Below are positions 15,921 to 37,117 of a stretch of 64,000 nt of DNA, one piece after another. Origin of the DNA: Thalassoglobus sp. (GTDB lineage: Bacteria; Planctomycetota; Planctomycetia; Planctomycetales; Planctomycetaceae); assembly GCA_048266185.1 (NCBI GenBank), contig JBLWZY010000001.1:652002-716001 (forward strand). The letters are read 5' to 3'. The notes below the pieces were generated by a model. That model was not told the DNA's origin. It saw only the letters and a list, made by a program, of their open reading frames with translations, and ran no database searches. Each line of letters opens with the position of its first letter. Position 1 is the stretch's first letter. The translations under genes were made by a program, and so were the position numbers.

Positions 15921-15965
15921 GCGACACTGATCAATACGACATCGATCAATGTGACATTGATCAAT
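15921..15965. repeat. Three tandem 15-bp repeats (RYGACAYYGATCAAT)
   Basis: gcgacactgatcaat / acgacatcgatcaat / gtgacattgatcaat, exact period 15. Confidence 0.85.
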
Positions 15966-16278
15966 CCTCAGCGGATGCTGATGGGTTAATAGAACCTTCT
16001 GAGTCGGAATGACCCGTCGTCAGCATTTCTTCATGCATGGCAGTTCTTTTTTGAGAGAGTCGGTAGAAAGAGATCCCGAACGCAGTGAACATGGTGGCTG
16101 GCATCGCCAACATGAACAGGATGCTGTACATGTAAGCGCGAGGTCGAGCTAGTGTGACATCATCTTGCGCATCTTCGTTCGCCACAGCACACATCGGGCA
16201 TGCCTGAGCTGGGCTGGTCATGAAGAAACCACTCGATAGAACGAGTGCGACGAGTAAAATTCGAATTTGCTTAAACAT
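15961..16278 (-). CDS. Small exported/membrane protein with CPMC motif, last gene of the oxidase cluster
   Basis: Signal peptide ending AQA, then CPMC; one TM helix (YSILFMLAMPATMFTAFG). Confidence 0.75.
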   Translation of the reverse strand: MFKQIRILLVALVLSSGFFMTSPAQACPMCAVANEDAQDDVTLARPRAYMYSILFMLAMPATMFTAFGISFYRLSQKRTAMHEEMLTTGHSDSEGSINPSASAED

Positions 16279-16316
16279 TGAAATCGACCTGTTTTGTTGA
16301 GTTGGTCAAGGCTTGG

Positions 16317-17546
16317 TTAAAGCTTGTACAACATCCAGTAAATGATAACACCTGTGATCGACACGTACAGCCAGATTGGGAAAGTGACTTTTGCCCACTT
16401 TCGATGTGACTCCCAGTTCTGCCGAAGTCCTTTGGTGATCGTAACTAACGCTAAAACGGGAACCATTGCAGCTAGGATAACATGGCTGATCAATATTGAG
16501 AAATAGACAGTTCGAATCGTTCCAGTCTGCTCAAACGGTTTCCCACGGACACCAGCGTAATGGTGCAGGGCAAAATGGTAGGCCAGGTAGGAAATCAAAA
16601 ACACACAGGAGACGCCGAATGCATACAGCATTAGTTTTTTATGCAAACCGGTGAGCTTCGCTTTGATCGCTGTGTAACCGAGCATCAGCAAGAGTGTGGC
16701 GAGTGCGTTGAGCATTGCGTTCGTGGCAGGCAACCGCTTCGCCCAGTAGGGAAGCTTTGCGAGAGGGTCGACCTTGACCGTTTTCATATATTCCAGAACG
16801 GAAGCTTGCTGTGCTTCACGCGCTTCGATGACGACGGGACGATACTCGTCCGGGGTTTCAATGTCCCCTTTCAGGACGCGGCGCAACACCGACATCTCTT
16901 TCGGGTCGATGGAGTTGTAACGACCGAGAATTTTTCCGGCAGCATCGACATGAATGATGTTGTTGTCGTGCGCAAACTCCATTCCCGGTTGGCGTGCAGT
17001 CCCCACGTTTTCCCACGCGGTCACTTTAAAACCTTCGCGAATCAGCTTCCAGACTTGTACGGGATCTCCGGTTGCAAACAACCATCGCTTGGGGTCTGCT
17101 TCCCAGATGTCGGCATACTTTCGCATGATCTCGACGGTATCTTCTTCGGGATTGACGGTAATTGTCACCATGCGCATATCGACATCGGAGACCGTTTTAT
17201 CGAATTCCATCATCATCCGAGATGTCATTGGACACTGATGCGGACACTGAGCGAAGATGAAGTTCACGATCCATGGTTTGCCGAGCAAATCTTCTCTCGT
17301 GAATTCTTCTCCTGTCTGATCAACCAGTGTGAAGTCGTCAACTTCGTCCGGATTCCAGACTTGAGGTTGATCGTACGCGCTGCGTCGATAGGTCAGGGGC
17401 AGAGTTTCTCCCGGTTCCAGAACTTGATTTTCTGGGAGTTCTGCAGGAGCTTCATCATCCGCGAAGAGCTCCCCGCACGTCATGCAGGCAAGCAAACAAT
17501 ACGCAACAAGAGGCAATGACAGCACCTGCCATCGAGAAGAATTCAT
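16317..17546 (-). CDS. SCO1/SenC copper chaperone fused to DUF420 (CtaM-like) membrane domain
   Basis: NFIFAQCPHQC (CxxxC) plus distal His (FAHD); C-terminal 4-TM block with ISHVILAA and P.WLYVS.TGV. Start refined to MNSSRW. Confidence 0.88.
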   Translation of the reverse strand: MNSSRWQVLSLPLVAYCLLACMTCGELFADDEAPAELPENQVLEPGETLPLTYRRSAYDQPQVWNPDEVDDFTLVDQTGEEFTREDLLGKPWIVNFIFAQCPHQCPMTSRMMMEFDKTVSDVDMRMVTITVNPEEDTVEIMRKYADIWEADPKRWLFATGDPVQVWKLIREGFKVTAWENVGTARQPGMEFAHDNNIIHVDAAGKILGRYNSIDPKEMSVLRRVLKGDIETPDEYRPVVIEAREAQQASVLEYMKTVKVDPLAKLPYWAKRLPATNAMLNALATLLLMLGYTAIKAKLTGLHKKLMLYAFGVSCVFLISYLAYHFALHHYAGVRGKPFEQTGTIRTVYFSILISHVILAAMVPVLALVTITKGLRQNWESHRKWAKVTFPIWLYVSITGVIIYWMLYKL

Positions 17547-17575
17547 AATGCATCGATTTTCGTAATAGAATCCAA

Positions 17576-35105: not shown

Positions 35106-35169
35106 AATTCCTTAATACCGCATACTACCAACGTATGAATAATAAAAACGACCACAATTTCAGTGTGTG

Positions 35170-35943
35170 TTACAAAGGCTGGCTGATGCCACCATCTTTT
35201 CGCACACGCCAGAAGTGGACTGCAATGAGTCCGGAGACCACAATCGGAATCGCTACACAGTGTAAAATGTAAAAGCGATTCAGAGTCTCTTCACCCACAG
35301 TCCGGGCTCCGAGCAGCAAAAACTTTGCGTCACTGGCATTTGTAATCAGGTCGTAACCGCCCACATTGAGCAACTGATATCCAGGCCCTTCAAGGCCCAG
35401 GAATGGTGTCGCTTTCGCCATGTTTGAACCGACGGTGATCGCCCAGATCGCTAGCTGATCCCATGGCAGAAGATAGCCAGTGAACGATAACAGAAGCGTC
35501 AGGACCAGTAGTAGCACGCCGATGACCCAGTTGAATTCCCGGGGAGGCTTATAGCTTCCCGTCAAGAAGACACGGTACATATGCAGCCACACTGTAATCA
35601 CCATCGCGTGAGCACCCCAGCGGTGAATTTCACGCATGATTCCAAGTGTATTCACATCTCGCAGAGCTCGAATGTCTGTAAATGCCCATTCGAGTGTCGG
35701 GCGATAGTAGAACATCAACAAGACGCCCGTCAGCGCCTCAACCAGAAACAGGAAGAATGTAATCCCACCCATACACCAAGTGTAAGAAAGTGCAATTCCA
35801 CCCTTCTTTGCAGAAACTGGATGAAGGTGAAGAAAGAAGTTCGTCAGCACGACGACCGCACGATTTCGACGATCATACGGAGCGGGGTGGCGAAAGATAC
35901 TTCGCCAGATTTGCGACTTCCGAATGTATTCCGTAACCGACAT
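35170..35943 (-). CDS. Cytochrome b6-like N-terminal cytochrome b (PetB/QcrB-like)
   Basis: WCMGGITF, LMFYYRP, IHRWGAHAMV, YKPPREFNW, TGYLLPWDQ, RFYILH...AVH (four heme-b His). Confidence 0.93.
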   Translation of the reverse strand: MSVTEYIRKSQIWRSIFRHPAPYDRRNRAVVVLTNFFLHLHPVSAKKGGIALSYTWCMGGITFFLFLVEALTGVLLMFYYRPTLEWAFTDIRALRDVNTLGIMREIHRWGAHAMVITVWLHMYRVFLTGSYKPPREFNWVIGVLLLVLTLLLSFTGYLLPWDQLAIWAITVGSNMAKATPFLGLEGPGYQLLNVGGYDLITNASDAKFLLLGARTVGEETLNRFYILHCVAIPIVVSGLIAVHFWRVRKDGGISQPL

Positions 35944-36019
35944 ACAACTACCTGACGGACACTACTTGAATGAAACTCTACAATTGCTAAAACAGCAACA
36001 ACTCACATCACCGCGACGA

Positions 36020-37117
36020 CTACGCATCCACGTAGGATTTCATGTCCGACCACTGACCGAGTTCTTCCTGAAACTTCATGCTCTTGTCAACTTCCAGTGA
36101 CCCATCTTCTGAGACACGAATCCCGACACGCTCGAGAGGGCGTGGCGCTGGACCTTCGAAGTTGATTCCAGTGATATAAAATCCTGAACCGTGACACGGG
36201 CATTTAAACTTCTGCTCCCCTTCAAGCCAGTTGGGAGTACATCCCAAGTGGGTGCAAATTGAAGCTAAAGCATAAATGATTCCGCGTCCGTTATATTCAT
36301 CGCTGTTGATAATCCAGACGCCACGGCTTGCCTTGAATTTGGCAGAGACGACACCTGGCGGATAATCAGAAGGAGGCCCCACTTTGAATCGTGAAGGCAA
36401 CTCGAGTACCATGTTTGGCATCATGTAGCGAGCGATGTCCAAAGACCAGATCGCACCAATTGCACCCATCGCTGACCATGCCAATGCGAAGGGAGTGATT
36501 GCAATCGCTGCCAGAATTGCAACGAAGCCACGGCGTTGAACTTTTTCCGATCTCTTCGGAAACTTTGGCTTCATCGGAGCTGGTCTTCCAGCTGGCAACT
36601 TCGGCTTTGCAGGGGCACCTGTTTCGTGAGCTTCCTTGACCGCGGCAACCATATCTTTCAGAGCAGGGCGATCACCGGCGACTGGTGCCGCTTTCTTTGC
36701 AGCCGGTTTTTCAGCAGCTGCTGGTTTTGCCGGGCTCGCTTTTGCGGCACCACCACCTTGAGCTCGTGCAGCTGCAAGAATGTCTGAAGTTGACTTAGGG
36801 GCAGCTGCAGGCTTTGCTCCGCCAGCTTGTGCTCTTGCAGCAGCAAGAATGTCCGCTGTGGAGCTTGGTTTCTCAGCAGGCTTTTTGCCACCAGCAGCTT
36901 GGGCTCTGGCAGCTGCCAGAATGTCTGCAGTTGACTTTGGTGTGGCGGCTGGCTTCTTCGCTTCTGCTGTTTTTTCTTCAGCAGGGGGAGTTGCCTCAGT
37001 TCCGCTTCCGCTGTCAGAGTCAACTTTTGACTTTGCAGACGCATCATCACCGTCGCTTTTTTGCTGACGAGCAAGAGCGATGATTTCTTCGGTGGTAAGT
37101 TTCTTTTTTTCCGCCAT
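36020..37117 (-). CDS. Rieske 2Fe-2S subunit (QcrA/PetC-like) with ~195-aa repetitive N-terminal extension
   Basis: CTHLGC and CPCHGSGF; internal Tat-like RRGF before the TM segment. Start refined to MAEKKK. Confidence 0.9.
   Translation of the reverse strand: MAEKKKLTTEEIIALARQQKSDGDDASAKSKVDSDSGSGTEATPPAEEKTAEAKKPAATPKSTADILAAARAQAAGGKKPAEKPSSTADILAAARAQAGGAKPAAAPKSTSDILAAARAQGGGAAKASPAKPAAAEKPAAKKAAPVAGDRPALKDMVAAVKEAHETGAPAKPKLPAGRPAPMKPKFPKRSEKVQRRGFVAILAAIAITPFALAWSAMGAIGAIWSLDIARYMMPNMVLELPSRFKVGPPSDYPPGVVSAKFKASRGVWIINSDEYNGRGIIYALASICTHLGCTPNWLEGEQKFKCPCHGSGFYITGINFEGPAPRPLERVGIRVSEDGSLEVDKSMKFQEELGQWSDMKSYVDA
36758..36937 (-). repeat. Three coding repeats of (K/S)ST(A/S)DILAAARAQ, period 23-24 codons
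   Basis: Units at 36899-36937, 36827-36865 and 36758-36796; peptide nearly identical but synonymous codons diverged. Confidence 0.9.

Follow-up and report, generated by a model that had tools for sequence, protein, structure and literature searches.

In 2013 Lücker et al. pointed out that Nitrospina gracilis, Kuenenia and Ca. Methylomirabilis oxyfera share an operon in which an "atypical octaheme cytochrome c" is encoded together with an iron-sulfur (Fe-S) protein and a split cytochrome b (Lücker et al., 2013; PMC3578206). In 2025 Hauser et al. reported redox potentials above +300 mV for anammox Rieske proteins; in AlphaFold3 (AF3) models of the anammox complex the octaheme subunit Kustd1485 embraces the complex with its long N-terminal helices, His62 of Kustd1481 binds an additional heme b at the dimer interface, and the complex was proposed to act in NAD(P)H generation (PMC12954380). 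Octaheme Rieske/b6 complexes have been discussed almost only for anammox bacteria, which are slow-growing and genetically intractable. Here we describe a gene cluster of about 21 kb from the planctomycete Thalassoglobus sp., in which this core lies beside the only O2 reductase of the genome; in many cultivable planctomycetes it is the usual "complex III" of aerobic growth. The cluster lies in a stretch of 64,000 nucleotides (nt) of contig JBLWZY010000001.1 (the window), within which all positions below are counted unless another contig or locus is named.

The cluster consists of 17 consecutive open reading frames (ORFs), all on the minus strand, from 37117 down to 15961. The order from 37117 is Rieske protein, cytochrome b6, subunit IV (SUIV), octaheme cytochrome c, two cupredoxin lipoproteins (cup1 and cup2) and diheme cytochrome c, followed by the oxidase and assembly genes. 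Five junctions overlap (−4, −32, −4, −4 and −37 nt) and the remaining intergenic gaps are mostly 29-105 nt; the two widest, ahead of coxIV and of the gene of an ABC transporter ATPase, measure 218 and 254 nt, respectively. Because queG is the upstream neighbor and the genes downstream are convergent, the limits of the cluster are those given in a preliminary description made from the sequence. Its co-oriented, overlapping or closely spaced genes were found at the positions it had named, and its gene identities were supported by Pfam and NCBIfam, with which the protein families were assigned, and for the cupredoxins by AlphaFold2 (AF2) modelling, Foldseek and invariant ligands. Its count of ten CxxCH motifs is exact (eight in a protein of 1387 amino acids (aa), two in one of 496 aa). 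The chain from quinol to O2 is complete, as it had claimed, every redox component needed being encoded in the cluster. A scan of the cluster for promoter- and terminator-like sequences found none at a gene boundary; promoter-like sequences were fewer than in shuffled sequences and terminator-like ones slightly more numerous.

Quite probably the cluster provides the main aerobic respiratory branch from menaquinol to O2, and the only one of this genome, with the following path. Planctomycetes are taken to use menaquinone. A b6f-type Rieske/b6/SUIV complex would oxidize the quinol at an APWY-type Qo site, with a Q-cycle in the b6-type core and with hemes bL, bH and probably cn in the b6 subunit. 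The high-potential electron would pass from the Rieske cluster to the membrane-anchored octaheme cytochrome c, which would replace cytochrome f/c1, and from its outer class-I hemes to the lipid-tethered type-1 copper proteins and the tethered diheme cytochrome c. These carriers, whose membrane anchoring is predicted, would deliver it to CuA of an A-type aa3 oxidase and thus to the a/a3-CuB center. CtaA and CtaB would provide heme A, and a protein in which SCO1 is fused to DUF420 would provide copper and help in assembly. The order of electron transfer, the lipidation and the operon status we infer from the gene sequences.

The Rieske/b6 core and the octaheme cytochrome

For comparison, about 20 kb around the octaheme gene was taken from 24 genomes, the search being made within the phylum Planctomycetota, and the ORFs of these loci (numbered with the prefix L) were scored with the proteins of the cluster.

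The Rieske [2Fe-2S] subunit (365 aa; 36020..37117, minus strand; Pfam Rieske, NCBIfam PetC-like), for which the start at 37117 is preferable to that of the longer ORF at 37321, has as its best solved relative 9rk3, the crystal structure of the Kuenenia Rieske protein Kustd1480 (E 3e-35). Its cluster boxes CTHLGC and CPCHGS are invariant across 24 orthologs. One transmembrane (TM) helix (residues 198-216) follows an unusual cytoplasmic tail of about 195 aa, which is rich in Ala, Pro and Lys; the protein also has an RRGF motif resembling that of twin-arginine (Tat) signals. Within the tail (residues 1-195; 36533-37117, minus strand) three near-identical "STADILAAARAQ" motifs precede RRGF. Rieske orthologs of 395-456 aa were seen only in Planctomycetaceae, those elsewhere in the phylum having 164-340 aa.

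The cytochrome b6-type subunit (257 aa; 35170..35943, minus strand; Pfam Cytochrome_B, 1.6e-41) finds its best matches in the PDB among the b6 subunits of b6f complexes (E 1.5e-42). The four His ligands of hemes bL and bH (H-x13-H in helix B and H-x14-H in helix D) are kept in 22 orthologs; the CxGG motif for covalent attachment of heme cn (here WCMGG) is conserved in 21 of the 22, and heme cn is probably present. An N-terminal HLHP motif (residues 39-42) is invariant in the same 22 proteins. Its H39 corresponds to His62 of Kuenenia Kustd1481, and the aerobic complexes may also carry an extra heme b on this His at the dimer interface.

The third subunit, an enlarged SUIV (454 aa; 33741..35105, minus strand), matches PetD (Cytochrom_B_C) over residues 199-314. 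All 22 orthologs compared share its Qo motif, APWY (residue 244), by which it belongs to Kao and Hunte's "APWY clade" (PMC4122944); among the groups of Dibrova et al. (PMC5600118), the cytochrome b/SUIV pair is probably one of the short-b type with CxGG. Of the hallmarks of a b6f-type complex, the split into b6 and subunit IV and the CxGG motif are present and cytochrome f is absent: the cluster contains no gene for cytochrome f or c1, and the gene after that of SUIV encodes the octaheme cytochrome.

The octaheme cytochrome c (1387 aa; 29510..33673, minus strand; Pfam Cytochrom_C, Cytochrome_C7 and PDZ_2) has its CxxCH motifs at residues 258, 316, 371, 406, 545, 832, 1020 and 1276. From the N-terminus the protein has a single TM helix, a region of about 200 aa predicted to be helical and four CxxCH at short intervals, after which come a class-I domain, a PDZ domain and three monoheme modules. 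In the 24 orthologs, which come from about 20 families, the number of hemes is always eight and the 4 + 4 spacing is constant. The PDZ domain, which is of the HtrA type, lies between hemes 5 and 6 (residues 661-743; 31445-31693, minus strand) and is an insert of some lineages only, in which the spacing between these hemes is about 260-290 aa versus 100-190 aa elsewhere. Apart from this domain, no solved structure resembling the protein was found by sequence search of the PDB or by Foldseek with an AF2 model; the model, of residues 188-1387, has a mean predicted local distance difference test score (pLDDT) of 66.6, with values below 50 in the tetraheme region, as expected without hemes.

Orthologs of the octaheme cytochrome occur in 119 of the 301 sampled genomes of Planctomycetota. 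In the protein collection the family comprises at least 3155 clusters at 90% identity, all named members being from Planctomycetota, where current annotation calls them merely "c-type cytochrome" or "hypothetical protein". The octaheme module is thus common in the phylum though annotated uninformatively.

One locus of the comparison, L034, has the order Rieske, b6, FAD/FeS NAD(P) oxidoreductase, SUIV and an octaheme cytochrome of 948 aa. An exact-sequence look-up showed that it is from Candidatus Kuenenia stuttgartiensis, and we identify it as Kustd1480-1485 because its cytochrome b has H62LHP and R266/K267, which match the residues cited for Kustd1481 (PMC12954380). In tblastn searches the Kuenenia proteins are 55% (cytochrome b, Kustd1481), 41% (SUIV, Kustd1484) and 46% (Rieske, Kustd1480) identical to those of the cluster. 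The octaheme cytochrome is about 27-32% identical to Kustd1485 over its length and retrieves the 948-aa protein in phmmer with E 3e-62. In the Thalassoglobus genome the genes of the cluster are the best matches of the Kuenenia Rieske, b6, SUIV and octaheme proteins. By sequence the core of the cluster is orthologous to the anammox complex Kustd1480-1485. The preliminary description had pointed to the multiheme bc complexes of anammox planctomycetes; the relationship is closer than assumed there, the core subunits being best reciprocal-type matches of Kustd1480-1485.

Copper lipoproteins, diheme cytochrome c and the aa3 oxidase

The octaheme gene is followed by those of cup1 (289 aa; 28644..29513, minus strand) and cup2 (328 aa; 27628..28614, minus strand), which by tblastn are paralogs with 40% identity. 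The cupredoxin models of Pfam and NCBIfam match neither protein; Pfam detects just a CarboxypepD_reg-like domain at the C-terminus (CarbopepD_reg_2 in cup2). For cup1 an AF2 model based on 42 homologs reached a pLDDT of 88, and with Foldseek its central domain matches amicyanin, plastocyanin, pseudoazurin, Cupredoxin_1 and CuA domains (E from 6e-6; target TM-score 0.67-0.78). The type-1 copper ligands H173, C212, H215 and M218 of cup1 are invariant in the 42 homologs, and the same set is found in every cupredoxin gene of 20 related loci. The ligand loop is amicyanin-like (C-x2-H-x2-M) in cup1 and reads CDFHTFM in cup2. By modelled fold and ligands cup1 and cup2 are type-1 copper cupredoxins, predicted to bind copper and to transfer electrons. 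The protein of Thalassoglobus polymorphus that is 94% identical to cup1 carries at NCBI the name "cupredoxin domain-containing protein".

In addition to the copper ligands cup1 has a conserved Cys pair (C101/C148), three near-invariant His (H153, H227 and H255) and a C-terminal beta-sandwich. The extra Cys and His would suit copper-delivery or assembly factors for CuA and CuB, working beside SCO1, in which case the diheme cytochrome c alone would link the octaheme cytochrome to the oxidase. The genes of cupredoxins adjoin coxII or ctaA/ctaB in four loci (L022, L026, L033 and L037), and the SCO1::DUF420 gene is also in the cluster. The invariant His...Cys-x2-His-x2-Met is, however, the classical type-1 electron-transfer site of amicyanin, and the structural matches are electron carriers and CuA domains rather than chaperones of the PCuAC or CopC type. 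Moreover, several lineages have the cupredoxin but no diheme cytochrome c, which would leave no carrier between the octaheme cytochrome and CoxII. That the two proteins serve copper delivery only is therefore very unlikely in our view, and we take them as electron carriers.

The diheme class-I cytochrome c (496 aa as listed, with an uncertain start codon; 26169..27659, minus strand) matches Pfam Cytochrom_C and Cytochrome_CBB3 in two stretches and has its CxxCH at residues 174 and 358. Its orthologs stand immediately upstream of coxII in L002-L004, L020 and L038. Like cup1 and cup2 it has a signal peptide ending in Cys. The lipobox is good in cup2 and looser in cup1 and in the diheme cytochrome, which is probably a lipoprotein. 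The tether of cup1 is disordered over about 43 aa (pLDDT below 60 for residues 23-60), and that of cup2, of about 87 aa, is of low complexity and rich in Ala, Pro, Thr and Glu. A third paralog with cupredoxin and beta-sandwich is encoded elsewhere in the genome, away from respiratory genes (contig C7:259797-260618); by eye, without a family scan, its neighbor looks like an ABC transporter.

CoxII (292 aa; 25243..26121, minus strand; Pfam COX2_TM and COX2; TIGR02866 CoxB, 4e-39) has no fused heme c and a complete CuA site (H...CxExCGxxHxxM; here DVQHSF ... CAELCGWGHYKM), which distinguishes it from the corresponding subunit of quinol oxidases. With CuA complete and heme c missing, it needs an external one-electron donor. 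CoxI (617 aa; 23284..25137, minus strand) is an A-type heme-copper oxidase subunit (PF00115, 474 bits), its score of 603 bits with TIGR02891 being slightly under the equivalog cut-off of 670. With CoxII, CoxIII, CoxIV and the binuclear CuA site beside CoxI, the oxidase has the features of an aa3 type. In line with the preliminary description, the octaheme cytochrome occupies the position of c1 or f, and type-1 copper proteins are placed between the bc-type complex and the CuA-bearing aa3 oxidase.

The remaining genes of the cluster, all on the minus strand, encode further oxidase subunits and accessory proteins. Heme A synthase CtaA (22229..23203; PF02628 COX15-CtaA, 2e-17) and heme O synthase CtaB, a protoheme farnesyltransferase (21288..22232; PF01040 UbiA, 2.7e-54), are followed by CoxIII (20252..21247), which matches PF00510 at its two ends only and is CtaE/QoxC-like in NCBIfam; its residues ~125-250 form a hydrophilic, helix-rich insert of about 130 aa. 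CoxIV (19599..20033) is of the prokaryotic type (PF03626 COX4_pro, 1.7e-13; TIGR02229). Between coxIV and the SCO1::DUF420 gene sits an exporter pair (17576-19344) of a DrrA-like ATP-binding cassette (ABC) transporter ATPase (18415..19344; PF00005 and DrrA1-3_C; TIGR01188, 1e-78) and a DrrB-like ABC-2 permease (17576..18418; PF01061, 5.6e-27; TIGR01247); an ABC-2 exporter is paired with oxidase-assembly genes also in L030 and L038. The SCO1/SenC copper chaperone fused to a CtaM-like DUF420 (16317..17612; PF02630, 3e-25; PF04238, 6e-38) again has an uncertain start codon. The last gene (15961..16278) encodes a small protein of 105 aa with two hydrophobic segments, predicted to be secreted and membrane-anchored, in which CPMC directly follows the predicted cleavage site of the signal peptide and a TM helix forms the C-terminus. 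This CPMC protein has no match in Pfam or NCBIfam and no homolog in the other loci examined.

The genome, of 6.67 Mb and 100% complete, has as nearest named relatives T. polymorphus (94-95% protein identity), T. neptunius and Planctomicrobium. No CydA, and thus no cytochrome bd oxidase, was found in it, and only two genes match PF00115: that of CoxI in the cluster and one for a NorB of 759 aa with a cytochrome-c-like domain, a quinol-dependent nitric oxide reductase (qNOR). With no bd oxidase present and the second PF00115 gene encoding a qNOR, the aa3 oxidase of the cluster is the only O2 reductase of the genome, and a cbb3 or bd oxidase as an alternative is ruled out. The qNOR gene is at contig C12:86970-89249, the cytochrome-c-like domain being N-terminal. 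The statement in the preliminary description that there is no c1 and no soluble cytochrome c holds for the cluster and fails for the genome as a whole: a second Rieske/b system on contig C16 (77101-79999) consists of a Rieske protein of 188 aa and a cytochrome b of 720 aa fused to a diheme cytochrome c, resembling the Kuste3096-3097 type of Kuenenia.

An alternative complex III was also considered and rejected; the cluster has no genes of the NrfD/ActC or ActB type, and the only NrfD-family gene of the genome is on contig C4. There it forms, with the genes of a tetraheme cytochrome c and of a 4Fe-4S protein exported by Tat, a module of three genes (51848-54854), its own product being a membrane protein; the module adds a further quinone-linked redox system of the periplasm but falls short of a complete alternative complex III. 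Further multiheme cytochromes are present in the genome besides those of the cluster.

This inventory, with its qNOR and multiheme cytochromes, bears on the question whether the octaheme complex could be mainly a hub from which electrons branch, or a device working reversibly or by bifurcation, that serves several periplasmic partners (qNOR, other cytochromes, metals), its adjacency to the aa3 genes reflecting co-regulation only. Eight hemes far exceed what a wire to a single partner needs, and in several families the module has no neighboring oxidase genes. The anammox ortholog, whose Rieske potential is above +300 mV, has been proposed to generate NAD(P)H (PMC12954380), and box II of the Rieske protein, CPCHGSGF, is common to the cluster and Kustd1480. 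On the other hand, an NAD(P) oxidoreductase is missing from the cluster; the closest relative of the anammox protein in this genome is only 29% identical and is encoded on contig C19. The linkage to cupredoxin and oxidase is the most frequent downstream context of the module, and an organism with this O2 reductase only needs a quinol:carrier oxidoreductase that feeds it. A hub function thus appears improbable, and the respiratory branch to O2 is the reading we retain.

Distribution in the phylum and the mobility of the carriers

The order Rieske-b6-SUIV-octaheme is nearly always kept, in about 20 families of Planctomycetota (in one exception, family f58, the b6 gene is about 9 kb away). Since the same gene order recurs across the phylum, the arrangement is not due to chance. 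A cupredoxin gene stands after the module, or divergently beside it, in 17 of the 22 loci with enough flank. The genes coxII and coxI follow in L002-L004, L020, L023, L027 and L038. The full chain coxII, coxI, ctaA, ctaB, coxIII and mostly coxIV is present in the loci from Planctomycetaceae and, with variations, in those of three other families (L020, L023 and L027). Where the diheme cytochrome c is missing (L022, L023, L027 and L037), the cupredoxin gene directly precedes coxII. In L027, from a high-GC planctomycete, a large gene for an FAD-type oxidoreductase, HemY-like by eye, lies between octaheme and cupredoxin genes (L027:8877-10259).

In four genera of the family to which Thalassoglobus belongs, neither a b6-type cytochrome b nor the octaheme cytochrome is present; these genera keep A-type oxidases together with cupredoxin paralogs, one of which is 3 kb from a coxI. 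As the paralogs persist without the b6/octaheme module, the copper protein tracks the oxidase more than the bc complex; from its distribution it looks like a partner of the oxidase and not like a fixed subunit of the bc complex.

The preliminary description had proposed more than a common gene cluster, namely a Rieske/cytochrome b-octaheme-cupredoxin-aa3 supercomplex, which in its strictest form would be one obligate, stoichiometric assembly that electrons never leave, as in the bcc-aa3 complex of Actinobacteria. All carriers are predicted to be membrane-bound, a single cluster of co-oriented genes, several of them overlapping, holds the entire chain, and the linkage of bc, cupredoxin and oxidase genes recurs in several families. 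The octaheme helices that wrap around the complex in the AF3 model of Kuenenia could serve as docking surfaces (PMC12954380). However, the long disordered tethers of the cupredoxins are typical of mobile carriers, the oxidase genes lie apart from the bc genes in many families (L021, L028, L029, L031 and L036), and the cupredoxin family persists where there is no octaheme module. Nor did the loci examined contain a fused "Rosetta-stone" protein. An obligate supercomplex is therefore rather unlikely. Tethered shuttles fit at least as well, in view of the length of the tethers and of a linkage that is looser in many families, and we favor tethered mobile carriers like cytochrome cy of Rhodobacter, possibly within a loose assembly, over a rigid obligate supercomplex. 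The additional points of electron entry or exit that the preliminary description considered possible are speculative.

Several points weigh against the respiratory path as proposed. The first four hemes of the octaheme cytochrome look c7/c3-type (Pfam Cytochrome_C7); hemes of this type often have low potentials, which makes them awkward directly after the Rieske center. Since related genomes without the octaheme module have cupredoxin paralogs too, the copper proteins cannot be called specific for this bc complex. The order of cupredoxin and diheme cytochrome c in the path we infer from gene order alone. The Rieske/cytochrome b::diheme-c complex encoded on contig C16 could also feed the aa3 oxidase, and the gaps of 218 and 254 nt could house internal promoters. 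Finally, gene content, motifs, the cupredoxin fold, orthology and conserved synteny are shown here, and the path is proposed from them.

A bolder proposal goes further: aerobic Planctomycetota may run their sole O2 respiration via a self-contained mega-assembly, with a high-potential Rieske center despite menaquinone (as in Kustd1480), an extra inter-monomer heme b on HLHP and an octaheme arm that together with tethered blue copper and diheme cytochrome c is wired to aa3. This assembly would be ancestral to the NAD(P)H-generating complexes of anammox bacteria, which would have arisen by insertion of the oxidoreductase gene. We regard this as speculative and doubtful as a whole.

Cultivable planctomycetes offer a tractable source for purifying the complex and solving its structure. 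Work on the planctomycete complex could put the predicted heme cn and the additional heme b to the test, and could reveal for what reason a single cytochrome f or c1 is replaced here by eight hemes plus a copper protein. In the literature we found no description of the wiring of bc complex, cupredoxin and oxidase in aerobic planctomycetes or of the structure of a planctomycete supercomplex. "Uncharacterised", the word used in the preliminary description, is fair as regards the aerobes. The operon type, however, was on record from 2013 (PMC3578206), and AF3 models of the anammox version were published in 2025 (PMC12954380).

Comparison with known systems

With the b6f complexes of cyanobacteria and chloroplasts the cluster has in common the split into b6 and subunit IV, the heme cn motif, the b6f-type Rieske protein and a type-1 copper carrier on the acceptor side. 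The b6f complexes use plastocyanin as carrier, in cyanobacteria onward to an aa3 oxidase. Unlike b6f, the cluster encodes neither cytochrome f nor the small Pet subunits and has APWY instead of PEWY at the Qo site; unlike plastocyanin, its copper protein is predicted to be lipid-tethered and has an extra beta-sandwich domain.

The bcc-aa3 complexes of Actinobacteria (Mycobacterium, Corynebacterium) are similar in that they conduct electrons from menaquinol to O2 without a soluble cytochrome c, via membrane-bound carriers, and in having a diheme cytochrome c between the Rieske/b complex and CuA. They differ in their unsplit, long QcrB, whereas the cytochrome b of the cluster is split, in their integral diheme QcrC, and in having no multiheme wire and no copper carrier. 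The NCBIfam models of QcrA, QcrB and QcrC (NF050120, NF050121 and NF050122) score 90, 43 and 24-26 bits versus cut-offs of 500, 275 and 200.

Anchored one-electron carriers are found in cytochrome cy of Rhodobacter capsulatus, the sulfocyanin of the SoxM complex of Sulfolobus and the halocyanin of haloarchaea. The likeness is that an anchored heme or type-1 copper carrier acts between a Rieske/b complex and a heme-copper oxidase. The three systems belong to other lineages and subunit families, and to our knowledge none has an octaheme subunit.

The ext cluster of Geobacter (ExtO/P/Q/S; PMC5877670) combines, as here, a b6-type complex with c-type cytochromes. The cytochrome b of the cluster scores 256 bits with the ExtP model and SUIV matches ExtQ, both below the cut-offs of the models; the ext cluster, which lacks an oxidase and a cupredoxin, belongs to the anaerobic reduction of metals and metalloids (PMC5877670).

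The operon of Nitrospina and Methylomirabilis has a b6f-like Fe-S protein, a split cytochrome b and the octaheme cytochrome as the only c-type subunit; the likeness is one of description, made in a remark on genome annotation that mentions no link to a cupredoxin or an aa3 oxidase (PMC3578206).

Kustd1480-1485 of Kuenenia agrees with the cluster in its Rieske protein, in a b6 of four helices bearing CxGG and HLHP, in an enlarged SUIV with APWY, and in an octaheme cytochrome with 4 + 4 heme pattern that has an N-terminal TM segment and long helices and replaces cytochrome f. The Kuenenia operon contains between cytochrome b and SUIV a cytoplasmic FAD/FeS NAD(P) oxidoreductase, which the Thalassoglobus cluster lacks. 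The Thalassoglobus octaheme cytochrome is about 440 aa longer and has the PDZ insert, and its SUIV has at least eight hydrophobic segments in a TM scan versus the five helices reported for Kuenenia. In Thalassoglobus, unlike in Kuenenia, the core is followed by cupredoxins, diheme cytochrome c and the aa3 oxidase. The bc part of the cluster is the aerobic counterpart of the anammox complex minus the NAD(P) oxidoreductase: a conserved, biochemically unstudied variant of the Rieske/b complexes, joined via blue-copper lipoproteins to an ordinary aa3 oxidase.

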